A DNA stretch of 41,325 nucleotides from the NCBI GenBank assembly GCA_036822015.1, contig DAISIL010000002.1, forward strand, positions 75,268 through 116,592, in the 5' to 3' direction. The notes below the pieces were generated by a model, which saw only the letters and a program-made list of their open reading frames with translations, had not been told where the DNA came from and made no database searches. Below, in pieces: positions 3,211 to 30,408 of the stretch (position 1 is its first letter; the number at the start of each line of letters is the position of its first letter). Source of the stretch: Bernardetiaceae bacterium (GTDB lineage: Bacteria > Bacteroidota > Bacteroidia > Cytophagales > Bernardetiaceae). A program made the translations under genes and the position numbers.

Positions 3211-3729
3211 TTAGCGGATGTTTGGTAGCCTGGGGTAAGGTACCAGCGATTCCATGACCTGGATGATGGCCTCCTTAACGAACATGGAGATGACGATCAT
3301 GATGACCCCCGTCAGGATGCCGATGGCGATGTTGTTTTGTCTAATCTCCTCAAACTCGTCAAAGTGCGTCAGGCTGATATAGAGCTGGATGGATAGCCAG
3401 TTAATCAGTAGGGCAATAAAAAAACTGATGACAAAGAAGAGCAAGATATACAAAAATGCCTGTCCGGCGATAGTAGCCACGTGATCGTGGACATCGCGTA
3501 GCTGCCGGATGGTGCTGCTTACCGGTGCCACAATCCCCTCCAAAATATTACCGACCGAAAAAAGCATTGCCGCCCCCAACACCGCAAAAGCGATGTTGTC
3601 TTTTTCGATGTCATAGCGGCGCACGATGAGGCGTTGCATCACCAAAAAGGTGAGGTACAACACAAAAACAGAGAGCAGCAAGGCAATCCCCAACTCTAGC
3701 AGGGAGAGCAAAATCAAGGTGGTGTTCAT
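3211..3729 (-). CDS. DUF350 domain-containing inner-membrane protein (two DUF350 repeats)
   Basis: Two repeats of the hydrophobic-helix + D/E..EI..(G/N)N.A.A motif (YDIEKDNIAFAVLGAAMLF and FDEFEEIRQNNIAIGILTGV). Its N-terminus overlaps the stop of the upstream membrane protein by about 119 nt, so the true start could be an internal Met. Confidence 0.55.
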   Translation of the reverse strand: MNTTLILLSLLELGIALLLSVFVLYLTFLVMQRLIVRRYDIEKDNIAFAVLGAAMLFSVGNILEGIVAPVSSTIRQLRDVHDHVATIAGQAFLYILLFFVISFFIALLINWLSIQLYISLTHFDEFEEIRQNNIAIGILTGVIMIVISMFVKEAIIQVMESLVPYPRLPNIR

Positions 3730-5944
3730 CGTCTTGGGGGTTTGGGCGCAAGGATAAAATCTTTTCGGACAAGGACGGCATCTCCCAGGATACCTGGGCG
3801 AGGCATCGTATGAGGCGACGCGGCATACGGGTATAGTTCCAGACTTCTTCTAGTCCGGACTTGATTTCGAGGGCGGTAAGGTGTACCGTATCCTGGGGCA
3901 AGGCAATGACCTGCCAGAGGAGCGTATCAGCGGGGCGATAACGGACGTAAAGCGAGTCGGTCTGGAGGGCGGCCGCTCCAAAGTTGAGCCTTTGGCCACC
4001 CCGAATGTAAAGGCGGAGTTCGTCGGGCTGGCGTTGGGAGGGCGTATAACGCAGGGTGAGGTAGCGCAGGGAGTCGGTCTGGCCCAGGGTGTCGGTTAGG
4101 AGGTCGATCTGGGGTGCGGGCAGGTAGCGCATACTGTCGCGGGCAGTGAGGAAGCGTTGGTTTGCCCAGGGGAAGATGTCGGGCATCGGGCTGATGTCGG
4201 GGGCATTGCCGAAGAACTGCCGCGTATAGGTATCCGTGCTGGGGTCGGTGCTGCCCCAGAAGGCCTGGTCGCTGCTTAGGTTGATCGCAAAAAAGGCACT
4301 GTTGGGACGTTTGTGGTGTTTGCTGAACGCACTTCCGATGTGTCCGTAGAGCAACAGCCCTAGTCCCGTAACAAGCACGAGCAGGGGCATTGTCCAGCGC
4401 AAACCACCAGCCAGGACGCGCCACTGTGGCAAAAACAAAGCCAGCCACAAGCCTAAGGCACTGCACCAGAGGAGGGTTTTGTCAGCAAAAAGCAAGCCTT
4501 CGATGGTGGCCAGGGGCAGCCAAAGTTCGCCCAAATACCAGCCGGCAGGCAAAAAGAACAAGGTCAGGATGAGGGTATCGGCGGGGTTGTAGTCCGAGGT
4601 TTGGCGACCGCGCAGCAGCACATATACCCAACTCAACAAGCCCCAGAACATCGGAATCAACCAGAAGTGCAGAGCCGCTGTATCGAACAAAGCAAAGCCC
4701 GATAAGTCCATCGCCGCTGGCAAGGCCGATCCAAAAGGAACACCAAAAACAACCAGACCGCAGCCCAATATCGCCCAGGTCAGGGCGGCAGCCCCCAGGT
4801 CAATGGCCCGCAAGAAGCCCGCAAAAAAACCGTACATAAGCCAAAACCCACCTAGCATGAGCAGCGTAAGGCTCAACAAAAATACCGACTGCATCGGGAT
4901 ACCCCGCAGCGACTCCCCCCACCAAACAAAAGCCGGGTGCCAGGCCAGGGTCATCTGCCAAAGCAAAAACGTACCCGTCGCCGCCGTCCCGATCAAGACC
5001 GGAATCACGCACACACTCCAGAGGTACGAACCCAAAGAGATCGCCCCGCGCCATAAGCCCAACAGCAACAGGCAAACCCACACACCAGCCAGGGTCAAGA
5101 AGACGATCCGAGCCTCGAGGTGCGTATAGGCTACCTGCCCGATCAGCGGCACGACAAAGTAGCCCGCTACGGCATCTTCCGAAGCCTTCGCTTGCTCTCG
5201 AAAATTTAAGACCACATCTAGCAGGGTCTGGGTTTGGGCTTCCAGCAGCGGTAGCGAGACGTTCTCGGGGACATCCATGGCCGTCCCTTGCGCCAGATCG
5301 CCCTCCAGGGCCAGCAGCCAGCTTTTGCGCAAAGGCAGCCCCGTAGCCAGGACGGCATCCGCAACGGCCATACCGTGAGGCAGTACCGACTTACTCAACA
5401 ACACGGGTTTTCCGCGTGTCCCGCGCCCGGGCATTGAAAGTTGATGGGTCAGGTCAAGCCCTTGATCTACGGCTAGTTCGGGTTTATTTCCCCAAAAAAA
5501 GACGACATCCACAGGCGGGCGATATTCGGATGAACCCGCCAGCACGGATACCGCTTCGAGCATCGCGGCGGCCTGCAAAGCCTCTGAAGCCGGTAAGGGT
5601 TGCCGCAGAGGAGCTACCACGAGTAGCGTCCGGCTGCTGTCCTGCCCCGGCATACGGAGCCACACCTGATGGCTCGCCTCGAGGGAAAGATAGCCTTGCT
5701 TCTCCTCTTGCTGCACCTGCTGGTAGAGCGTGTCCTGAAAGTCTAGCCCGAGGCTATCGAGCCATCGGGTCAGGTGTGCCGGTGTCGAAGAAGCAAGCCG
5801 CTGAAAGTGCATCTCCAGGCGGTCTTTTTGGAGGGGATAACCCACCGACTGACGGGGCAGCTTTTGGGTCAAGCCAAAAAAAGCAGCCCCGACAAGCAAG
5901 AGCATCAGCCAGGCGGCCAGACGAGCAGAAAGCGAACGTGGCAT
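3611..5944 (-). CDS. large (777 aa) multi-pass membrane protein of unknown function with N-terminal signal/anchor and a about 230-aa C-terminal soluble domain
   Basis: Long ORF with roughly 10 or more hydrophobic helices in the central 350 aa (W/G/L-rich). I recognised no diagnostic catalytic motif. Confidence 0.55.
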   Translation of the reverse strand: MPRSLSARLAAWLMLLLVGAAFFGLTQKLPRQSVGYPLQKDRLEMHFQRLASSTPAHLTRWLDSLGLDFQDTLYQQVQQEEKQGYLSLEASHQVWLRMPGQDSSRTLLVVAPLRQPLPASEALQAAAMLEAVSVLAGSSEYRPPVDVVFFWGNKPELAVDQGLDLTHQLSMPGRGTRGKPVLLSKSVLPHGMAVADAVLATGLPLRKSWLLALEGDLAQGTAMDVPENVSLPLLEAQTQTLLDVVLNFREQAKASEDAVAGYFVVPLIGQVAYTHLEARIVFLTLAGVWVCLLLLGLWRGAISLGSYLWSVCVIPVLIGTAATGTFLLWQMTLAWHPAFVWWGESLRGIPMQSVFLLSLTLLMLGGFWLMYGFFAGFLRAIDLGAAALTWAILGCGLVVFGVPFGSALPAAMDLSGFALFDTAALHFWLIPMFWGLLSWVYVLLRGRQTSDYNPADTLILTLFFLPAGWYLGELWLPLATIEGLLFADKTLLWCSALGLWLALFLPQWRVLAGGLRWTMPLLVLVTGLGLLLYGHIGSAFSKHHKRPNSAFFAINLSSDQAFWGSTDPSTDTYTRQFFGNAPDISPMPDIFPWANQRFLTARDSMRYLPAPQIDLLTDTLGQTDSLRYLTLRYTPSQRQPDELRLYIRGGQRLNFGAAALQTDSLYVRYRPADTLLWQVIALPQDTVHLTALEIKSGLEEVWNYTRMPRRLIRCLAQVSWEMPSLSEKILSLRPNPQDDEHHLDFALPARVGDCLAALCFCVVPHLFGDATPHRAPL

Positions 5945-6085
5945 ACAAAAAAATTATTTTTTTGGGCCGACAAGGTAATAAATTTTTTTAAGTATTCAGC
6001 CGCTAAGCAAACACCAGACTTTTGGCGGATGATAATCCACAAAAATAAAATCTTTTTGGCGTATCTTTACATTCAAAAACCGCAT

Positions 6086-8249: not shown

Positions 8250-8257
8250 TAATTTTG
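8250..8257 (+). promoter_or_regulatory. candidate Bacteroidota sigma-A -7 element (TAnnTTTG) upstream of the TIR gene
   Basis: TAATTTTG lies 25 bp upstream of the ATG at 8282 in an AT-rich divergent intergenic region. No convincing -33 TTG was seen. Confidence 0.3.
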
Positions 8258-8281: not shown

Positions 8282-10756
8282 ATGTCGGATTTCAAAGATG
8301 TTTTTATCTCCTATGGTCGCGCGGAAAGCAAAGCCTTCGCTACCAAAATCCACGACTGGCTAAGGGCAGAGGATTATGCCGTGTGGTTCGATCAGAATGA
8401 CATCCCGCTGGCGGTAGATTTCCAGACCCAAATCGACCAGGGCATTCAGGAGGCCCACAACTTCATCTTTATCATCGCCCCGCACGCCCTACGCTCTGTT
8501 TATTGCCTCAAAGAAATTCTGCAAGCCATCCGGCTGGGTAAGCGCATCATCCCGATTTTGCACATCGAACCCCAGCAAAAAGAAGACTGGGATCAGATGC
8601 ACCCCACGATCTCGAAGCTCAACTGGCTGTACTTTAGGCAGCAGTATGATCCCAATCTTCCCCTTGAACAGTGGGAGGACATCGACGACTTTGCCAGAGC
8701 ATTTGATGCACTCAAAGCTGTTCTCCAGAGCAACCAGGAGTACGTCGCCTGGCATACCTATATCCTCAATGAAGCCATCCGCTGGAACCAAAACCAACGT
8801 CGCCCCCAGTTTTTACTTGCCGGAGACGACCGTGAACAAGCCCTCAAATGGCTCCTGACGGATTTTCGCAAAGAGCAAACCCCCTGCCTACCCACCGACC
8901 TACAATGCGAGTACATCTGCGAATCCCGAAAGAACGCCGAAAACCTCATGGCCGATGTCTTCATCTCATCCCCGCCCGCCGACCGCCGGCTACGGGAGCA
9001 GATCACGGCCGCCCTGCACCGCAAAAGCATCACGACCTGGACAGAAGCCGACATCAAAACCGGACAACGCGCCCGCGATGCCGCCAAGACGGGTATCCTG
9101 CATTCGGATAACTTCATCTTTTTTCTTTCCACCGAGTCCGTCGTTTCTGTCGAGTGCCTCAAAGAACTCAAAACAGCGATCAAGAACCAAAAGCGTATCA
9201 TCCCCCTGCTCGTGGAGTTTGTGGACGATTACCAAATCCCCCGCTCGGTGCGCTCCCTCAAGCGCGTCGATTTCACGGACAACGAAAACGAAGAGCATTT
9301 CCAGATCGACATCCGAGACCTGATCCAGGAAATCAGAAAAGACCAAACCTACTACCACCAACACAAAATACTCCTAGCCCGCGCCCTCAAGTGGGAACAA
9401 CAAAACCGCAACGATAGCATCTTGCTCCAGGGGCAATCCCTCCAAGAAGCCCAAGCCTGGCTCGACATCGGCGAACGCAGAGCCGACCATAAGCCCACCC
9501 AACTCCACCGAGATTTCATCCAGGAAAGCCTCCTCAAGACAGGACAAATCCGCACCGATGTTTTTCTTTGCTATGCCTCCAACGAAGGCGATTTTGTCCG
9601 ACGGCTCAACGAAGAACTACAAATCCACGGCAAAAACACCTGGTTCGATCAAGAAACCATCAACACCAACTCCTCCGAGGGCTTCCGTCAGGAGGTAGAG
9701 CAGGCTATCCTCGAATCCGATAACGTCGTTTTTATCCTCTCCAAAAAATCCGTCGAAAACACCGACACCCAAGCCGAACTCGCCCACGCCCAAACCCTGG
9801 GCAAGCGCATCATCACCCTGATTTACGACGAAGTACCACCCTGGCAGATGCCTGACCGCCTGCGCCAAACCACGCAAATTGATTTTGAGCGCGACAAGAT
9901 GGACTTCCACGACGCTTTCAGTCAGCTCATCCGCCAACTCGATGCCGACAGCGATCATGTCCGTAGCCACACCCGATGGGAGCAGGAGGCCCGCCAGTGG
10001 AGCCAAAACGGACAAAATGAAGACTTTCTCTTGCGCGGCAGTGAGTTCACGATTGCCAAGGAGTGGTTTGAGGAAGCCAAACGCCGCAACAAAAAACCCG
10101 CCCCCACCCCCCTCCAGGAATCCTTCATTGCCAAAAGCGAAGAGGTCATCGAATGGACGCGCCAGCAGGAGGAAGCCCAGGAGCGTCGCCTCCTCGACCT
10201 CGAACGTGCCCGTGTACGGGAGGCCCAGAAGCGCGTCCGACGGCAGAACATCTCCCTGGTTATCATCAGTGTAGCCCTTTTGGTGGCCATTGTCTTTGGC
10301 AGCATTGCCTACAAGCGTACCACGGAGGCCAGTGCCGCCCTAGCCATAGCCGAAGAAGCCGAAAAACTAGCCCGCCTCAAAACCGAAGAGACCGAACGCG
10401 CCCTCCAGAAATCTCTCGAAGCCGAAATCAGCCTCCAAAATGCCCTAATCGAAGTAGAAACGGCCCGAGCCAATGCCGAAGCCGCCCTCCAAAAAGCAGG
10501 CATCGCCATCTCCCAACGCCAGCAGGCGGTCAGGGAGCGCGTACAGGTAGAACGGCAGGCCAAAAGCAGGCTCTCGGCCCAGGAGCAACGCGAGATCGAA
10601 AAGTTCCAGGAACTCCGAAAGAAACTCGAGCAAGCCCAAAAAGACCTCCAGCGGGCGGTCGATGATATGGCTGCCATTGGGGTCATTCGTCCGGCAGTCA
10701 AGCAACGCCTGCGCGAGTTGATCGAAAAGGAGTTTAAGGAAGCTACCGTGGAGTGA
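8282..10756 (+). CDS. triple-TIR-domain membrane protein: TIR1 (aa 5-125), TIR2 (aa 224-345), TIR3 (aa 425-545), each followed by a W-rich helical module; TM helix at aa 657-676; C-terminal coiled coil at aa 680-824
   Basis: There are three betaA motifs (DVFISYGRAES, ADVFISSPPAD, TDVFLCYASNEG) and three alphaC motifs with a conserved Glu (SVYCLKEIL, SVECLKELK, TDTQAELAH), plus recurring KRIIP. The three linker modules are ILNEAIRWNQNQRRPQFLLAGDDREQALKWL, ILLARALKWEQQNRNDSILLQGQSLQEAQAWL and HTRWEQEARQWSQNGQNEDFLLRGSEFTIAKEWF. The hydrophobic stretch is ISLVIISVALLVAIVFGSIAY, flanked by KRVRRQN. Confidence 0.85.
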   Translation: MSDFKDVFISYGRAESKAFATKIHDWLRAEDYAVWFDQNDIPLAVDFQTQIDQGIQEAHNFIFIIAPHALRSVYCLKEILQAIRLGKRIIPILHIEPQQKEDWDQMHPTISKLNWLYFRQQYDPNLPLEQWEDIDDFARAFDALKAVLQSNQEYVAWHTYILNEAIRWNQNQRRPQFLLAGDDREQALKWLLTDFRKEQTPCLPTDLQCEYICESRKNAENLMADVFISSPPADRRLREQITAALHRKSITTWTEADIKTGQRARDAAKTGILHSDNFIFFLSTESVVSVECLKELKTAIKNQKRIIPLLVEFVDDYQIPRSVRSLKRVDFTDNENEEHFQIDIRDLIQEIRKDQTYYHQHKILLARALKWEQQNRNDSILLQGQSLQEAQAWLDIGERRADHKPTQLHRDFIQESLLKTGQIRTDVFLCYASNEGDFVRRLNEELQIHGKNTWFDQETINTNSSEGFRQEVEQAILESDNVVFILSKKSVENTDTQAELAHAQTLGKRIITLIYDEVPPWQMPDRLRQTTQIDFERDKMDFHDAFSQLIRQLDADSDHVRSHTRWEQEARQWSQNGQNEDFLLRGSEFTIAKEWFEEAKRRNKKPAPTPLQESFIAKSEEVIEWTRQQEEAQERRLLDLERARVREAQKRVRRQNISLVIISVALLVAIVFGSIAYKRTTEASAALAIAEEAEKLARLKTEETERALQKSLEAEISLQNALIEVETARANAEAALQKAGIAISQRQQAVRERVQVERQAKSRLSAQEQREIEKFQELRKKLEQAQKDLQRAVDDMAAIGVIRPAVKQRLRELIEKEFKEATVE

Positions 10757-10803
10757 TGCCCACAAAAAATTGTACCTTTGTTCAAAAAAAACATTCTCTC
10801 TGT

Positions 10804-11193
10804 ATGCCTACCATTGATATTACCGGAAAAATCATCAAGAAATTTGATACGCAGGTAGTCTCCGAACGCTTCCAAAAACGGGAGTTTGTCTTGCACGTGG
10901 AGGAGGATCGCTATCCCCAAGAAATCCTGCTACAACTGGTCCAGGACAAATGCGATCTCCTGGATAGCTACAAGGAAGGCGACCAGGTGCTGGCCCGCGT
11001 AGCCATCGAAGGGCGCAGTTGGCAACGCTCGCCGTCAGAACCCATGCGTTGGTTTAACTCCCTTAAAGTCTTTGCGCTGCAAGCAGCGGCCGGAGAGAGC
11101 AGTAGCCCTGCGTTCGCGCCCGCAACAACAAGCAGCGCACCCCCGCCCCCGCCTCCGCCCCCGCCCACCAGCGCGGATGACCTGCCCTTCTGA
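10804..11193 (+). CDS. DUF3127-family protein with C-terminal Pro-rich linker and SSB-like acidic tip (…APPPPPPPPPTSADDLPF)
   Basis: MPTIDITGKIIKKF...REFVLHVEEDRYPQEILLQLVQDKCDLL...GDQVLARVAIEGRSW...RWFNSLKVFALQ matches the DUF3127 pattern. Start chosen at the Met at 10804. The stop overlaps the folP start. Confidence 0.65.
   Translation: MPTIDITGKIIKKFDTQVVSERFQKREFVLHVEEDRYPQEILLQLVQDKCDLLDSYKEGDQVLARVAIEGRSWQRSPSEPMRWFNSLKVFALQAAAGESSSPAFAPATTSSAPPPPPPPPPTSADDLPF
11141..11167 (+). repeat. (CCCCCG)n hexanucleotide simple-sequence repeat encoding the poly-Pro linker
   Basis: ccccgcccccgcctccgcccccgccc read directly from the sequence. Confidence 0.7.
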
Positions 11194-12041
11194 TGACCAG
11201 CCCGTCTGCCTTTAGCCTGCGCCTGGGCGGCTCCCTGATGTCTCTGGATAGGCCCAAGGTGATGGGTATTCTCAACCTTACCCCCGATTCTTTTTTTGCT
11301 GGCAGCCGAGTGTCCCAAACCGAGGCACTTCTACGGCGTGCCGAGCAGATGCTCAACGAAGGTGCCGACTTCCTGGACGTAGGAGGCTACTCCACCCGCC
11401 CAGGGGCTAGCCCCGTACCCGTAGCGGAGGAGCAGCGGCGGGTGCGCGAGGCGATACAGGCATTGGTACAAGCCTTTCCGGAGGCGCATATCTCCGTGGA
11501 TACCTTTCGGGCTTCGGTGGTCGAGGTAGCCGTCGGGGAAGGAGCCGTGCTGATAAACGACGTATCGGGGGGTAGCCTAGACCCGCAGATGTTCCAGACC
11601 GTAGCCCGTCTGCGCGTCCCTTATGTGCTGATGCACCTACGTGGGACACCCCAAACGATGATGACCCTCAACCAGTACGAGGATTTGCTCCTGGACATCA
11701 TCGAGGAGTTACAGGCTCGTCTGGTACAACTTCGTCGCCTGGGCGTATCCGACGTGATCCTGGATCCGGGCTTTGGCTTCGCCAAAAATATCCCCCAAAA
11801 CTTCCAACTCCTGCGCCAACTCCCCGAGCTGCACCTGCTGGGCTGTCCTCTTTTGGTGGGGCTTTCTCGCAAGTCGATGATTTACAAGATGCTCCATATC
11901 ACGGCCGAGCAGGCCCTCAACGGCAGCACAGTCCTGCATACGCTTGCGTTGGAGCAAGGGGCGCATATCTTGCGTGTCCATGACGTAAAAGCGGCTCGGG
12001 AGGCTGTCCAACTTTGGGTTGCCTTTCGGGGAAAGGCATAG
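11193..12041 (+). CDS. folP: dihydropteroate synthase
   Basis: VMGILNLTPDSF, DVGGYSTRPGA, LINDVSGG and ILDPGFGFAK motifs over a 282-aa pterin-binding domain. Confidence 0.9.
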   Translation: MTSPSAFSLRLGGSLMSLDRPKVMGILNLTPDSFFAGSRVSQTEALLRRAEQMLNEGADFLDVGGYSTRPGASPVPVAEEQRRVREAIQALVQAFPEAHISVDTFRASVVEVAVGEGAVLINDVSGGSLDPQMFQTVARLRVPYVLMHLRGTPQTMMTLNQYEDLLLDIIEELQARLVQLRRLGVSDVILDPGFGFAKNIPQNFQLLRQLPELHLLGCPLLVGLSRKSMIYKMLHITAEQALNGSTVLHTLALEQGAHILRVHDVKAAREAVQLWVAFRGKA

Positions 12042-12149
12042 ATTTTAGTTATCTGACCATCAGAAAGATTGATGTTTTGCTCTCGAAAAGTCAAGTATCT
12101 TTGTCGAAATTCTGATAACTAAGGTTACAACTTACTACCGCTTAACGAA

Positions 12150-12183
12150 CGCTTCTCTGCCCGGGGGAGCGTTTCTTTTTTTT
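12150..12183 (+). terminator. candidate rho-independent terminator downstream of folP (imperfect GC-rich hairpin plus T-run)
   Basis: cgcttctctgcccgggggagcg can form a stem of about 8 bp including wobbles, followed by tttcttttttttat. Confidence 0.3.
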
Positions 12184-12190
12184 ATCTTTG
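12183..12190 (+). promoter_or_regulatory. candidate -7 promoter element (TATCTTTG = TAnnTTTG) upstream of hisG
   Basis: Perfect match to the Bacteroidota -7 consensus, 42 bp upstream of the hisG ATG. It is embedded in the T-run of the putative folP terminator. Confidence 0.3.
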
Positions 12191-23103: not shown

Positions 23104-26100
23104 TTAGACAAGTTTGAAGCGGCTAACCCCTGTTTTGAGCGTACCGGAGAGCTTGGCGAGTTCCTTACTGACAGTGGCAACCTCATCGACCGAACTTTGA
23201 AGCGTTTCGGATGACTTGGTGGCATCCTCTGTTCCTTTGGCAGTCTGGTGAGAGACCTGCACGATGCGTTGGATGTTGCTGGCTACCTGCGTGATGATCT
23301 CCTTTTGACCGCTGGTGGCTTCGGAGACACTGCGGGACAAATCCAGGGTTTCGCGGCTAGAATCGGAGATGTTCTCAAAGACCTCTCGGGCTTCTTTGGT
23401 GGCTCGGTTGCCGTTTTCTACGCTGTTTTTCATCCGATTGATAGAATCGGCGGCGGTGTTGATGTCTTTGGATACATCCTTGATGACCCGCTCGATGTCC
23501 GTAGCGGATCGTCGGGAATCCTCGGCTAGCTTTCGTATCTCTTCGGCAACGACGGCAAAGCCACGTCCGGCATCTCCGGCTCGGGCTGCTTCGATGGCAG
23601 CATTGAGGGCCAGGAGGTTGGTTTGGGCAGCAATGTCGGTGATGACACTCAAGGCACGGGAGATTTCATCGGAGCGATCGGAGAGCGTGCTGATGGAAGA
23701 GCTGGTGCGGTTGGCGGTCAGGTCGATCTGGCTCATCTCTTGTACCAGTTGTCGGATGATTTTCATCCCGTCGTCGCAACGCTGCATCCCTTTTTCGGCG
23801 GCTCCTCGGATGATACCCGCCTGCTGTCCTGTTTCGTCGGCACTCTTGATGACCTTCTCGACGAGTTGGGTTGCCTGATCGGTTTGTTGTACCTGCTGGT
23901 GCATCCCGTCGTTGATATTGACGATGGTCTTGACGACGCTTTGGGCATCTTTTTCCATGCCCTCAAATCGCTGCTCGAGTAGGTGAGAGGATTGCCCTAA
24001 CGTAACGGCACTGCTTTCGAGGTCTTTCAGGATCACGTTCAGGCTCTGGATGGCGTTGTTCATCGCCTGTCCCATGGCTTGAAGCTGCCCGGTGGCGGCG
24101 TAGTTGAAGGAGGTCGTTAGGTCTCCTTCGGAGAGCGACTGGATGACCCGCTTGATGTCCAGGATGGGTTCGGAGATGGAGCGGAGCAGTTCGTTTACCG
24201 AGTCAGCTAAGAGTTTCCAGGAACCCCTTGCGCCTTCGATGTTGAGGCGTTCGTCGAGCTTACCCTCCTTACCAGCAGCCTCCACGACGCGCTTGATTTC
24301 GGTGATAATGCTTCGGAGGTTATCGCGGAGGTTGATGGCGTTGCCGATCATCTTCCCGATGTCTCCTTCAATGCTTACGCCTTCGAGTTGGATTTCGGCA
24401 TCGAAGTTACCCTGGGAGAGGGCATCTACGAAGTTGCTCAAAGCCATGGAAGACTGCCGAAGGTCGGTTACGTTTCGGGCGTACTTGACAACTTTCAAGA
24501 AGTTGCCTTCACCGTCCGTGATCGGGGTGTAGTTGCCTTCGAGCCAGATGCGCTTGCCTGCTTTGTTTAGGCGCGGGTATGTCCCAAAGAGTGCCTTACC
24601 ACTGCGGAGGTCATCCCAGAACTCGCGGTACTCGCGGCTGTTGCGATAGACTTCATCACAGAACATGGCATGTGCCTTCCCGATGAATTCCTCACGCTGG
24701 TACCCCATCGCTTCCAGGAATCGGTTATTGGCCGAGATGACAACCCCCTCTCGATCAAACTCCACGACGAGGTTAGTCCGGTTGATGCCCTGGAGCTTGC
24801 CTCGGTTTTCGGCGTTACGGGTGCGGCGTTCGGTGGCATCCTGAGCAAACTTGACGATCTTGAGCAGTCGTCCGTCGTCATCCGTGATGGGGGTGTAGCT
24901 ACCCTCGAGCCAGATGCGTTGTCCGGCCTTGCCGATACGGGGGTAGGTATCAAAAACGGCTTCTCCTTGTCGGAGTTTTTTCCAGAGGTCTTGGTAGGTG
25001 CTGCTGTTGATGTGGTTTTGATCGCAGAAGAAACTGTGAGGCTTGCCGATGACCTCTTCGAGGGTATAGCCGCTGGTTTGGAGGAAGTTTTCGTTGGCGG
25101 TCAGGAGCCGGCCTTCAAAATCGTACTCTATGACGATGTTGGTGCTATTGATCCCCTCAAGTTTGCCTCGGTTTTCGGCGTTGCGTCGCTTGCGCTGGGT
25201 TACATCGACGGCAAGGGTCAGGATGCTGGACAGGTTGCCGCTTTGGTCATAGATCGGGCTAAACGATTCCTGGATGAAAACCTCTCGCTTATCCTTCGTG
25301 ATCCTTCGGTAGTCGCCAAAGAGGGTCTTTCCCTCTCGAAGGGTTTGCCACATTTCTTTGTAGCTCGGTGAGGCGACCTCCTCGGGCTTGCAAAGGAAGC
25401 TATGGTGCTTGCCGATCAGTTCATCTCGGGTGTAGCCCACAAAGTCAAGGTAGGTTTTGTTTGCGTCCAGGATTTGCCCTTCGGGTGAGAGTTCGATTGT
25501 ACCGTTGGATTTGCCGATGGCAAAGTTTTGGGCTTCTATGCGGGCGGTTTGTTCGATGCGATCCGTGATGTCGATGCGGAAGCCGAGATACTTGTAGATG
25601 TCGCCGTTTTCGTCTCGGACGGGGGCAATCGTAGCATCGACCCAATAGGTGCGTCCATCTTTGGCGCGGTTGCGGTAGGTTCCCTGGAAGATGTTTCCTG
25701 CCTGGATGGTTTCCCACATCTCTTTGAAGATGGTTTTGGGTGTCTCGGGATGGCGGATGATGCTATGCGGCTTACCGATGAGTTCGGCTTCGGTGTATTG
25801 GGCGACTTCACAAAACTTATCGTTGGCATACGTGATGCGCCCTTGCAAGTCGGATTCACTCAGAAGAGCCACCTTGCTGATGACCTTCAGACGTACCTCG
25901 AGTTCGTTTTGGAGGCGTTGTAGCTCCAGTTCTCGTTGTTTTTGTGCGGTGATGTCGATACGGAAGCCCAGATACTTGACAATCTCACCTTTTTCGTTCA
26001 GGATGGGGGCAATGGAGGCATCGACCCAGTAATCTGTACCGTCTTTGCGGCGGTTTCTGATGGTCTTTTGGAAGAGCTTACCGGCCTTGATCGTATCCCA

Positions 26101-29100
26101 CATCTCCTTGTAGATGCCTTTGGGGTTATCGGGATGGCGGACAATGTTATGGGGTTTGCCTACGGCTTCGGTGTTGGTGTAGCCGGAGACCTCCGTAAAC
26201 TTTTCGTTGGCAAAAGTGATCGTTCCGTAGATGTCCGTTTCAGTAACCAGAGCCACCTTGTCGATGATCTTCATTCGGGCTTCGAGTTCGCCTTGGAGGC
26301 GGCTGGCTTCGAGTTCAAATTGTTTTTGTTCGGTGATGTCGTTGCAGAGACAGGTAACGCGCTCGAGATGCCCCTGCTGATTGAGTATCGGGATATAACT
26401 AGCCCGTAGCCAAACTTCTTTTCCTGCTTTGGAGAGCCGCTTGGCATCTCGAACAAAAGAAACACCTCTGCCAATCTCGTCCCATAACTGATCGTATTTA
26501 CCCTCTCGGATTTGATCCTTAGCCACATAGAAGTCATGGGTTTTGCCCAGAACTTCGGTTTCGGTGTAGCCAAACAGCTCGGCAAAGTTGTCATTGATCG
26601 TGATGACGCGGCGTTGGGCATCGAAGTCAATACGTATCGTGGAGGTATTGATGGCCGAGACGTAATCATCGAGTTCTTTTTGCTGGGCTTTGATCTTCTC
26701 TCGGGCGGCTTTTTCTTCGGTAATATCGCGCATCGAGACCCGAATCAGGGTGCGTTCGTTCAGGTCAAAACTGATAAGGCTGATCTCGGCATCCCATAGC
26801 GTGCCGTCCGTTCGTAGGTGCTGCCACTCAAAGAGTGTACTGCCTTCGTCGATGGCGCGTTGGATGTGCCTCAGGGGGGTGGCTTCACTGTCGCTGCCGT
26901 CGGGTTGGGTAGTCGGGGAGAAGTCGATGGGTGTTTTGCCGATGATGTCTTGCTCTGTGGCCTTTTCTCCGCCAAAGAGTGCGATGGCAGCGGCATTGGC
27001 ACTGGTAAAACTCCCCCCTTCAAGGACGAGCAGCCCGTAGTTGGAGACCTCAAAGAGTTTGCGGTTGAAGGCAGCATTGGCTCGAATTTCGGCTTCGAGA
27101 CGTTGGCGTTCTTCGGCTTCCATGACGGAGGTGATGATCTCCGGTATGGCACGAAGAAACTTTTGGTCATCGCTTGTCCAGTGATAGGCTGTTGATCCTA
27201 CGTGTTCGATGCACAAAACACCCATGATCTCCCCTTTGAAGCGCACCGGCACATCGAGCAAAGATTGTATTTGATTCGGCTTAAAGTAGCCTTCGGTGAA
27301 CTCCCGCGTGTCGGGGTCTGTTTGTGCCTCTGATGCTACGATAAGCGTACCCCGCTTCAAGGCTGCAAAATAAGACGGGAAATCTTTTTGATGCAGCACC
27401 AAAGGGTCGTTGGAGAACTGCTGTTGGCTGCGTTGGTAGAGTTGCTGACACGTAATGAAACTTTGATCGGCGTTGTAGTGCCAAAAACTTGCCCGTTCGA
27501 CATGTACCCCTTCGGCAACCGACCTCAGGATTACCCGAATGGCTTCGTCTCGGTTACCTGCTTGAACATCTTTATTGATGGGCAGACGGTTTAGGATGTC
27601 ATTCTGCCGATTGAAGCGGATTTCGCGGGCTTTTTCTTCCGTGATGTCGCGGACGTTGGCGTAGATGAGTTCTTTTTCATAGACGGGAGCCGAGTTCCAT
27701 TGGAGCCACACATAACTACCGTCTTTTTTGCGGTAGCGGTTCTCGAAGGAGATAACCGTCGCCCCATCGGCGAGTTTGCCGGCCTCCTGGAGGGTAGCGG
27801 CTACGTCGTCTGGGTGAACAAATTCAATGAAGGGCTGGGCTTTGAGTTCGTCCTTGGTGTAGCCCAGGAGGTTCATCCAGTTTTGGTTCAAGAACTTGAA
27901 GTAGCCATCGAAGCCAGCAATACAGAGCAAGTCAATCGACTGGTCAAAGAAGGTGTTGAAGCGTTGCTCGCTTTCGCGGAGGGCATTTTCTTTGGCTTTG
28001 CGCTCGCTGATGTCTTCGCTGATATCGAGGTAGCCCAGAACTTCTCCAGCGGCATTGCGGACGGCGGTTACCGAAAGCACGATGGGGTATTTGCTGCCGT
28101 CTTTGCGGACGTAATGCCACTCGCGGATGTCTGGTTTTCCCGTCGTGCGGGTGCGATAAACAAAGGTCTCGAATCCAGGGCTTAGATCAAGTCCCATCTC
28201 CTGGTTGAGTTCGTGGGTACGGGCAACGACCTCCTCGGGGTCATGGATCAAGGCAGGCGTTTGCTTACCGATCATCTCCTCGGCGGTATAGCCCAGGTCG
28301 CGCTCGGCGGCTTCATTGAAAATGTTAATGACCCCATCGGCATCGGTAGAGACGACGGCAAAGCCCGCGCTTTCAAGGACGGCGCGTTGGTAAGCCGTTG
28401 CCTCCTCAAGGGCGATTTGTTTGTTGCGGATGTCGGTGATGTCGGAGTGAGAACCAGCCATGCGGTAGGGCTTGCCCGTCGGATCGAATAGGGCTTTGCC
28501 ACGCGCCCGAATCCAGCGGTAGCTGCCGTCCTGGTGTTGCATCCTGAACGAGACATCGTACTCGGGCAACTGTCCGGCAAGGTAGCCATTGAGGGCGTTT
28601 TCTACCTGGGGGAAGTCCTCTGGATGCACCAAAGCCTGAAACTGCGCGAAGTTATCTGCAATATCTTGCGGGGCATAGCCCAACATGGCTTTCCAGCGAT
28701 CGGAGAAGAAAATATCGTTCGTGCGCATGTTCCAATCCCATACGCCGTCGTTGCTGCCCTGCAAGGCTAGGTTGAAGCGTTCTTCGCTTTCTGCTACGCG
28801 GTTCTGGATCCGGCGGCGTGTACTCACATCCCGCAGGAAGCCCACAAACTCCGTGATGCCATCCTGCTGACGCACAACCCTGGATTGTACCCGAATCCAT
28901 TTTTCGGTTTGTGTTTGGGCGGTCTTTATCCTGAACTCTACGTCGTAAAGTGCCTTGGTTTGGATCGAATGTGTGATCCGCTCCTGGATCAAGGGTAGGT
29001 CTTCGGGATAAACCAAGCCAAACATGGTGTTGGCATCTTGGAGGGCGGCTTCGGGTTCGACTTCATAGACCTCCCGTACCTGCTCGCTGATGAACGTAAT

Positions 29101-30408
29101 CCGTGAAGTTCCTTCGTCGGATACTTCAAAGCGATAGATGATCCCGGGAACGGTAGCGATCAACTCCTGGCTATCTTGCTGCTGGGCTTTGAGCGCCTGC
29201 TGGGCTTGGATGCGCGGCGTAACATCTCGGATGATACCGTAAGACTCGTACTCCTCCGATGCCTGATCGACGCTGGAGTCTAGCTTGACCCAGATCACAT
29301 CGCCGTTTTTCTTCGTGATCCGAAACTCCATCGCTACGCCACTTCGTTGGGCGATGGATTGGCGCATTTTGGCTTCAAAATCAGATTTGTCATCCTGATA
29401 AATCAAGCTCCAGTACATCTCGGGGTTGGTCATCACCTCTGCGGGTGTATAGCCAAACACCTGCTCAGCATAGGGGCTTAGATAGGTGAAATAGGGCAGC
29501 CCTTGGGCGTTGAGCTTGGCTCGGTAGATCACCCCCGGGACGGTATCCAGGACGCGCTGGAAGGCTGCCTCGTTGGTTTCGGCTTTGAGTTGGGCGGTTT
29601 TGCGGATCGTTACGTCCCTAAAAATTCCGACAAACTCTACCTCATCGGCGTTTACGTATTCGACCCGTGATTGGGCGCGTATCCAACGAATTTTGTCTTT
29701 GACAAAGATGCGGTACTCATAATCGAAGAAGCCTTGCTTGGCTACGGCCTCTGTGATAGCTGCCTGTACGCCGGGTAGGTCGTCGGGATGAATCACCGCC
29801 AGCACTTTGGAGAAATCCTGTAGGGCTTCCTCGGCTGGAACGCCGTAAATATCTGCCATCTGCGGGCTAAGGTAGCGAAAGAGATACTCGCTCGTGTGCC
29901 GGGCCACGAAGCGATACAAGACCCCTGGCACGGTATGGATGAGGGTCTTTTGGTTTTCGATCTCTTCCTGGCTGTCCGACGAGATGCTGGGCTGGTCTTG
30001 GAGGGGCTGGATCAGTTGGAGGATTTTGTAGGGGCGATCCGAGGCATCCAGCAGAGGGGTATAGGCGATCTGGGCCGTGATGGTGCGTCCTTCTTTGTCG
30101 ATCAACTCAAAGTTTCCCGAAAAGGGTTTTCCGCCTCGGAGCGATTCCCACACGTTGGCGTGTCGTCCGTTTTGGCGGAAGGCTTCGGTGTGTAGGGCGC
30201 GTTCGGACTTGCCTTTGAGTTCGTCGGCGGTAAATCCCAGCCAACGGACAAAAGGGGCGTTGGCGGTCAGGATTTGTCCTTGCATATCTAGCTCGAGGCT
30301 AGGCACAAGGGCGTGCAAGGCGGCTTTGAGCTGCTGGCATTCGTTGCCGGTGGCGTGGCTCTCCTGCGGGATCAGACTATCTTTGTTGAGGTTGTCTCCA
30401 AGTGCCAT
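23104..30408 (-). CDS. giant (2434 aa) cytoplasmic methyl-accepting chemotaxis protein: about 14 PAS/PAC domains plus one GAF, HAMP-like linkers and a C-terminal MCP signalling domain; no TM segment
   Basis: C-terminal [37 protein letters not shown] signature. Many repeats of the PAS pattern (...[39 protein letters not shown]...). GAF block at [16 protein letters not shown]...GVLCIEHVG. No hydrophobic helix at the N-terminus. Confidence 0.9.
24440..25200. repeat. tandem duplication, 2 x about 366 bp, inside the MCP gene (two adjacent near-identical PAS domains with an RR(T/K)RNAENRGKL linker)
   Basis: ttgcctcggttttcggcgtt recurs at about 24797 and about 25163. aacttgac...ccgtgatgggggtgtag...cgagccagatgcg recurs at about 24484 and about 24850. 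Confidence 0.7.
25566..26340. repeat. tandem duplication, 2 x about 383 bp, inside the MCP gene (two adjacent PAS domains, about 75% nt identity)
   Basis: gtgatgtcgat(g/a)cggaagcc(g/c)agatacttg occurs at 25566 and 25949, with colinear similarity through ...gcatcgaccca...tcccacatctc...gggatggcgga... A third partial start is at 26333. Confidence 0.75.

Follow-up and report, generated by a model that had tools for sequence, protein, structure and literature searches.

A DUF3127 protein of a Bernardetiaceae bacterium as a probable compact member of the single-stranded DNA-binding protein family

The gene discussed here lies in a 41,325-nucleotide stretch of DNA (the window) from a metagenome-assembled genome (MAG) of a Bernardetiaceae bacterium (Cytophagales, Bacteroidota) and encodes a small protein of the DUF3127 family. 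The protein is probably a compact member of the SSB (single-stranded DNA-binding protein) family, with an oligonucleotide-binding (OB) core for single-stranded DNA (ssDNA), a disordered linker and a tip of the SSB C-terminal (SSB-Ct) type that would dock on the client proteins of SSB. The evidence consists of the predicted fold, the remote homology to SSB, the conservation of the tip, the way in which the tip tracks the host lineage and the genetic context of the phage members of the family. The window gene is in itself an ordinary DUF3127 family member. The gene and the parts of its product are these:

10804..11193, plus strand: DUF3127 gene, 129 codons, with the stop TGA at 11191-11193 (reading of the open reading frame, ORF)
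10804..11088, plus strand: OB-fold core, residues 1-95, as predicted in an AlphaFold2 (AF2) model
11089..11175, plus strand: disordered linker rich in Pro, Ala and Ser, residues 96-124 (~29 residues), with a predicted local distance difference test score (pLDDT) below 50 at residues 98-112
11140..11166, plus strand: (CCCCCG) x 4.5 repeat (Tandem Repeats Finder, 90% matches), forming the codons of Pro113-Pro121
11176..11190, plus strand: SSB-Ct-type tip D125-D126-L127-P128-F129, recognised by family conservation

The Pfam family DUF3127 (PF11325) matches residues 6-91 over profile positions 2-83 of 85 (83.9 bits, where the gathering cut-off is 27; E = 9e-24), and PHROG 4932, named ‘single strand DNA binding protein’, matches residues 5-129, tail included, over positions 2-117 of 117 (E = 4.8e-22). 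A scan of NCBIfam gave one sub-threshold and meaningless match only (IS66 TnpA, E = 0.042). The AF2 model, built on an alignment of 50 sequences, is confident over the core (block-mean pLDDT of 89-96 over residues 1-90) and leaves the tail disordered. Beta strands are predicted at residues 3-13, 17-20, 23-32 and 39-46, a helix at 47-55 and further strands at 61-73 and 82-94; the topology, beta1-beta3, helix, beta4-beta5, is the order of an SSB-type OB fold. When the model is compared with the PDB using Foldseek, bacterial SSBs take every one of the first 50 places (probability 1.00, E about 5e-6). Among the viral structures of BFVD, phage DUF3127 proteins rank first and are followed by phage SSBs. 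The core is thus predicted to be an OB fold of the SSB/PriB type.

Remote homology at the level of sequence points in the same direction. The DUF3127 profile matches the SSB of Deinococcus (1se8) at E = 0.0077, and hhalign against a small alignment of canonical SSBs gives 97.6% and E = 4.6e-12 for a region made up of beta4-beta5, linker and tip. With the tails removed the value falls to 67% (E = 5e-5), and the almost invariant W73 is then paired with W88 of E. coli SSB (EcSSB). This last residue is one of the four aromatics of EcSSB, W40, W54, F60 and W88, that stack on ssDNA (PMC5531588). The N-terminal halves of DUF3127 and SSB align only in a low-confidence global alignment (8.6%), in which equivalents of W40, W54 and F60 cannot be placed. 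The DUF3127 core has other conserved aromatics, F23, Y37 and F84, and in the alignment of 50 relatives the conserved aromatic and basic positions are F23, K25, R26, Y37, R71, W73 and F84. A tblastn search with E. coli SSB also finds the DUF3127 gene of locus L019, whose tip is FDDDVPF, at E = 7e-6. The link between DUF3127 and SSB, as judged by these alignments, is faint but real. The first-pass annotation had raised an OB-fold similarity of the core as something to be sought by fold and profile comparison, and both the Foldseek ranking and the hhalign match of the cores alone uphold it.

Tandem fusions of two DUF3127 OB domains occur in P0052, P0055, P0058, P0064 and P0085, some of them with a DD[LI]PF tip. 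Their architecture is reminiscent of the Deinococcus and Thermus SSBs, which have two OB domains, and it hints at a functional unit of several OB domains. An AF2 model of P0052 from single-sequence input has a pLDDT of 36.8 and its domain packing is unreadable.

The tail is the second line of evidence. The product of the gene ends in ...RWFNSLKVFALQAAAGESSSPAFAPATTSSAPPPPPPPPPTSADDLPF, and the first-pass annotation, which had described an SSB-like C-terminal tail on a DUF3127 protein, read it exactly. All 50 aligned relatives share F129, and for each of D125, D126, L127 and P128 the conservation is 90% or more. The linker between core and tip differs in length and sequence. A search of 1.84 billion cluster representatives returned 8708 clusters (50% identity) at E <= 0.001. 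A PF end is seen in 133 of the 149 best new cluster representatives, and the longer D[LIVMF]PF in 113, so the survey of homologues for the tip that had been proposed bears out the reading of the tail. Within a set of 176 single-domain relatives, which were selected for a PF end, D is found at -5 in 150, D at -4 in 153 and L at -3 in 167. The tails of this set have a median length of 35 amino acids (range 19-93). Pro accounts for 14.7% of their residues, and their commonest residues are Pro, Ala, Asp, Glu and Ser. The alignments indicate that the DDLPF tip is a family trait, kept far beyond chance. One relative, P0137, has a 90-residue linker rich in Q, G, Y and P (QQGYGQPQGGYPQQGYAPQGY...), very much like the intrinsically disordered one of E. 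coli SSB.

The residue at -3 varies with the host. Eighty DUF3127-bearing species genomes were sorted by their record labels, 56 as Bacteroidota and 24 as other phyla:

Bacteroidota-labelled loci (n = 56): L at -3 in 56; I, V, M or P in 0
Loci of other phyla (n = 24; Myxococcota, delta- and gamma-proteobacteria, others): L at -3 in 5; I, V, M or P in 19

By Fisher's exact test the difference has p = 3.7e-14, a value that is only indicative because MAG labels can err and the sequences are related. Tips outside the Bacteroidota include DIPF, DVPF and EIPF. Loci of this kind, from Myxococcota, SAR324 and gamma- and delta-proteobacterial MAGs, are L007, L010, L015, L019, L020, L022, L027, L039 and others. 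Canonical SSBs end in DLPF in Flavobacterium psychrophilum and Psychroflexus torquis, in DIPF in gamma-proteobacteria and in DVPF in one delta-proteobacterium (PMC3991886, Table 1), and canonical phage SSBs end in SDDLPF (Parabacteroides phage) and HDDLPF (Flavobacterium phage). The pattern is as would be expected if the DUF3127 tip must fit the same client pockets as the tail of the resident SSB.

The conservation of the tip could have another cause, namely that the terminal LPF acts mainly as a ClpXP degron that sets the level of the protein and not as a docking peptide. The C-terminal LPF of SsbA and SsbB of Streptococcus mutans does suffice for degradation by ClpXP, although recognition is described in the same report as strain-dependent and not seen in other bacteria (PMC5143411). 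One would not expect a degron to change between L and I or V along with the lineage's SSB tip, and conservation extends to the acidic positions -4 and -5, as it does in SSB-Ct. A degron as the main purpose of the tip is therefore highly improbable, and docking on SSB clients is the preferred explanation.

The phage members of the family provide the third line of evidence. Among GenBank phages, 89 carry DUF3127; their hosts are Flavobacterium, Nonlabens, Tenacibaculum, Cellulophaga and Bacteroides, and the phage proteins end in HDDLPF or SNDLPF. That they may be SSBs is already known, as RefSeq and PHROG 4932 label them ‘single strand DNA binding protein’ (a name given by annotation rather than by experiment); Pfam and NCBI still use DUF3127. 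An SSB of a Pantoea phage is reported to match the DUF3127 superfamily as well as an SSB domain (PMC8004638). The DUF3127 gene of phages Fpv5 and tooticki6-1 is placed among genes for replication initiation, RusA, DNA polymerase, primase/helicase and NinG. These two complete genomes are without a canonical SSB, and the best match in them of an SSB-core hidden Markov model (HMM) is the DUF3127 ORF itself. Relatives of DUF3127 are encoded on at least 481 IMG/VR contigs, and the context of 80 such loci was examined with flanks of up to 8 kb on each side, 956 kb in total. No canonical SSB was found in these 80 viral loci. The co-oriented neighbours, mostly within ~1 kb, include an exonuclease in 22 loci, an Erf-like ssDNA-annealing protein in 15 and an ATP-dependent DNA ligase in 10. 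Primase and helicase genes (12 and 12) and an ExoVIII-like nuclease (9) are also nearby, and genes for NinG/Rap and RusA lie ~3-4 kb away. The position of DUF3127 is the classic place of SSB in phage recombination modules. The first-pass annotation had offered two alternatives for the protein, a mimic or competitor of the SSB-Ct interaction or a divergent OB-fold binder of ssDNA. The second is favoured because the phage members hold the position of SSB and no canonical SSB was found there. None of the three outcomes that it had named as refuting came about: the tail is kept across the family, the core is predicted to have an OB fold, and at the level of lineage the tips of canonical SSBs of Bacteroidota and their phages agree with that of the window protein.

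The same viral loci (L090-L169) draw attention to another protein. In 21 of 78 viral loci (e.g. L137, 1700-2200) a conserved protein of 166 amino acids, phrog_21613, is encoded ~0.8 kb upstream of DUF3127, where it is flanked by the exonuclease gene and the SSB-like gene. This protein is possibly an unrecognised component of the recombination module.

Several points weigh against the reading of the window protein as an ssDNA-binding relative of SSB. The fold is a prediction from a model. The Pfam SSB family, PF00436, matches none of 50 DUF3127 family members, even at E <= 10, and of the four canonical stacking aromatics only W88 is confidently aligned. A nearly invariant tryptophan of the family, W90, is F in the window protein. 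The core is mildly acidic, with an isoelectric point (pI) of 5.8 (family median 5.8) compared with 8.0 for the core of EcSSB. The chromosomal neighbours are housekeeping genes, none of them concerned with DNA metabolism. The canonical SSB of the host was not found in the window by tblastn with E. coli SSB or with the SSB-core HMM; neither this SSB nor its partner proteins were seen, the agreement between tips is at the level of lineage only, and MAG mislabelling and the kinship of the sequences make its statistical support indicative only. The searchable literature contains no experimental test of any DUF3127 member; DUF3127 receives one passing mention in it, and a combined query for phage and SSB found none.

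Some of these points would also suit a decoy or regulator that has no useful ssDNA binding and whose tip competes with SSB for its clients, or which delivers some other cargo or activity. An acidic core, three of the four stacking aromatics without confident equivalents and the lack of a PF00436 signal among the 50 members are all compatible with it, as is a chromosomal copy that is presumably carried alongside a canonical SSB; both families are present in Flavobacterium at the level of the genus. However, the phage members occur exactly where phage SSB genes sit, with exonuclease and Erf-type neighbours and no canonical SSB in the genomes and flanks examined. Moreover, it is the whole OB core that is strongly conserved and not the tail alone, and the tandem two-OB versions have their parallel in the SSBs of Deinococcus and Thermus. 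A decoy is unlikely on this balance, and a compact SSB-family protein remains the favoured interpretation.

A comparison with known systems helps to place the protein. The canonical SSBs of PF00436, exemplified by E. coli SSB, S. aureus SsbA and F. psychrophilum SSB, have the same arrangement of OB fold, Pro/Gly-type disordered linker and D-D-(L/I)-P-F tip (PMC5531588). The tip of Bacteroidota SSBs is identical to that of the window protein. The beta4-beta5 motif of the canonical proteins, GDxVxVxGxLRxRxW, can be aligned with DUF3127, the equivalent of W88 included. The DUF3127 core, with ~95 residues and short loops, is smaller than the ~110-115 residues of the canonical core, and no confident equivalents were found in it for W40, W54, F60 or the tetramerisation residue His55. 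The phage SSBs of PHROG 4932 and RefSeq (Flavobacterium, Nonlabens, Cellulophaga and Tenacibaculum) are of the same family and match over their full length, but they belong to replication and recombination modules whereas the window copy is chromosomal, among housekeeping genes and presumably beside a canonical SSB.

Second SSB-family proteins that accompany an essential SSB are described for Bacillus and Streptomyces (SsbB) and for S. aureus (SsbB/SsbC) (PMC3616714, PMC5945547). These secondary paralogues are clear members of PF00436, whereas the DUF3127 core is far more divergent and yet keeps its tip almost invariably. Several secondary SSB paralogues are without the acidic tip. PriB is also a small protein derived from SSB, and the window protein might be a PriB-like accessory devoted to replication restart and primosome assembly, or to one recombination or repair step, and not to general coating of ssDNA. 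PriB has neither a disordered linker nor an acidic tip and is found in the proteobacterial rpsF-priB-rpsR context. The window protein differs in having both the linker and the acidic tip and in lacking that gene context, and its family is mainly one of Bacteroidota. An accessory of this kind is about as unlikely as the decoy and, if anything, marginally more so.

If the protein is a compact SSB-family member, then its core would bind ssDNA and the flexible linker would present the DDLPF tip, which would dock in the hydrophobic pocket and basic ridge of SSB clients such as PriA, RecQ, RecJ/ExoI, RecO, the chi subunit and others. In this way the DUF3127 protein would plug into the interaction hub of the host SSB. 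In phages of Bacteroidota, DUF3127 would be the SSB that the phage itself supplies to its recombination and replication modules, and the chromosomal copy in the window would be a second SSB-family protein. The binding of ssDNA and of partners, the oligomeric state and the cellular role are what we infer from fold, tip and context together.

The gene itself is clearly delimited. The ORF begins at ATG 10804 and gives a product of 129 amino acids. An earlier GTG at 10753 was considered as the start and rejected, because the closest relatives (P0002-P0004) all begin MPTV[DE]ITGK, which makes ATG 10804 the true start. The flanking features to which the following text refers are these:

8282..10756, plus strand: triple-TIR protein, 824 amino acids, with three TIR_2 stretches (Pfam)
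10773..10780, plus strand: candidate promoter TACCTTTG, matching TAnnTTTG, its last base 24 nucleotides 5' of the ATG
11193..12041, plus strand: folP, dihydropteroate synthase (Pterin_bind, E = 6.5e-73)
11176..11208, plus strand: 16-nucleotide tandem duplication GATGACCTGCCCTTCT / GATGACCAGCCCGTCT (Tandem Repeats Finder, 2.1 copies, 88% matches, score 52)

TAnnTTTG is the -7 promoter motif of the Bacteroidota type. It is present in 30 copies in the window where 16.3 are expected, and none of 100 shuffles reached 30; examples are at 8250-8257, 10773-10780 and 12183-12190, and several copies stand 20-45 nucleotides 5' of ORF starts. A sigma-70 scan gave no promoter match in the region of 10773..10780. 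The motif at this place is possibly the DUF3127 gene's own promoter. A terminator scan found no terminator-like site from the TIR gene through DUF3127 to folP. Such hairpins come only after the DUF3127/folP junction, at 12020-12038 and 12147-12174. The DUF3127 gene is probably co-transcribed with folP, since a terminator-like site is absent between the two genes.

The stop TGA of DUF3127 and the first ATG of the folP ORF share the A at 11193 (TGATG, 11191-11195). The overlap of the DUF3127 stop with the folP start that had been annotated therefore holds for the ORF, in which one base is shared, and is unproven for the FolP protein because the Pterin_bind match begins only at residue 24. Later ATGs are found at 11238 and 11262, and either could be the true start of folP. 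The 16-nucleotide duplication extends from the DDLPF codons across the stop into the folP ORF, of which it takes in the first five codons, and the junction, including the TGATG overlap, may have arisen through it.

The poly-Pro tract in the linker had been annotated as a (CCCCCG)n repeat at 11141-11167; the repeat exists and does encode the poly-Pro, but its true coordinates are one base lower, 11140-11166. The suggestion that it forms a length-variable tract, to be examined by comparing strains, finds no support: the poly-Pro has the same length in the window, in the Logan contig L001 and in the NCBI MAG protein P0051, three near-identical assemblies. The run of nine Pro residues is the longest among the 176 family tails, and species-level relatives have runs of seven Pro or none, a variation like that of any disordered linker. 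The copy P0051 (GenBank MGF1533768.1) has 136 amino acids and ends in ...DDLPSDDQPVCL, without the terminal Phe. This end is exactly what results from the deletion of one T from the TT at 11188-11189, and it may be due either to a sequencing error or to a real frameshift variant.

The other neighbours in the window are a nitroreductase, a SpoIIE-type phosphatase, hisG and an OmpA-like protein, in addition to the triple-TIR protein and folP. As had been annotated, DUF3127 is directly downstream of the triple-TIR gene, with a gap of 47 nucleotides between the end of that gene and the ATG. The pair recurs in L084, a Bernardetiaceae-like contig with a DUF3127 72% identical to that of the window and an 824-amino-acid TIR homologue at 3491-5965. 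This homologue has the same divergent SpoIIE-phosphatase neighbour. The pair was seen only in the window, in the near-identical contig and in L084, and the TIR gene is absent from all 80 diverse DUF3127 genome loci. PADLOC has no match for DUF3127 and only domain-level matches for the TIR gene (ThsB, PDC-S66 and Aga TIR). A link to TIR as a family trait was consequently rejected, the synteny being local only, and a role in a defence system finds no support, as DUF3127 has neither a PADLOC match nor a conserved linkage to the TIR gene. On this evidence the TIR protein has no part in the DUF3127 function. A link to folP was rejected too, as folP is adjacent in 0 of the 80 genome loci and is not adjacent in L084. 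The recurrent neighbours in these 80 loci, named from sequence, are a flavin-reductase-like gene (17), aat (12) and an asparaginase (9). Elsewhere in the window, a giant ORF of 2433 amino acids (23104-30408, minus strand) contains ~12 PAS domains together with one GAF, one HAMP and one methyl-accepting chemotaxis signalling domain.

DUF3127 is found in at least 575 species genomes, mainly of Bacteroidota, and on only 2 of 72,556 plasmids. An origin of the window copy from a mobile element was rejected, and the chromosomal gene is regarded as resident rather than as cargo because of its housekeeping neighbours and its near-absence from plasmids.

A wider proposal can be put forward tentatively, and it is doubtful in its full extent. 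Most Bacteroidota, and scattered Myxococcota, Proteobacteria and SAR324, may keep a miniature second SSB on the chromosome, with a core too divergent for the SSB model to recognise and a tip in step with that of the lineage's main SSB; this protein would share or partition the SSB interactome. It may be a dedicated mediator of recombination or restart in phyla without PriB, PriC and DnaT, or a tunable competitor for the clients of SSB, and it may have been exchanged with phages, in which it is perhaps the only SSB. Three observations are useful leads that would not surprise a specialist: the tracking of lineage by the tip, the lack of a canonical SSB in the DUF3127 phage genomes and flanks examined, and the chromosomal second copy across the Bacteroidota.

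The main gain is a testable function for a large DUF family, one that spans 8708 clusters and occurs in no fewer than 575 species genomes and 481 viral contigs, and in annotation ‘DUF3127 domain-containing protein’ could reasonably become ‘SSB-like OB-fold protein’. If chromosomal copies do bind ssDNA and the clients of SSB, then Bacteroidota run two SSB-type hubs, which would bear on replication restart and recombination in these bacteria and on the way in which their phages tap the repair enzymes of the host.
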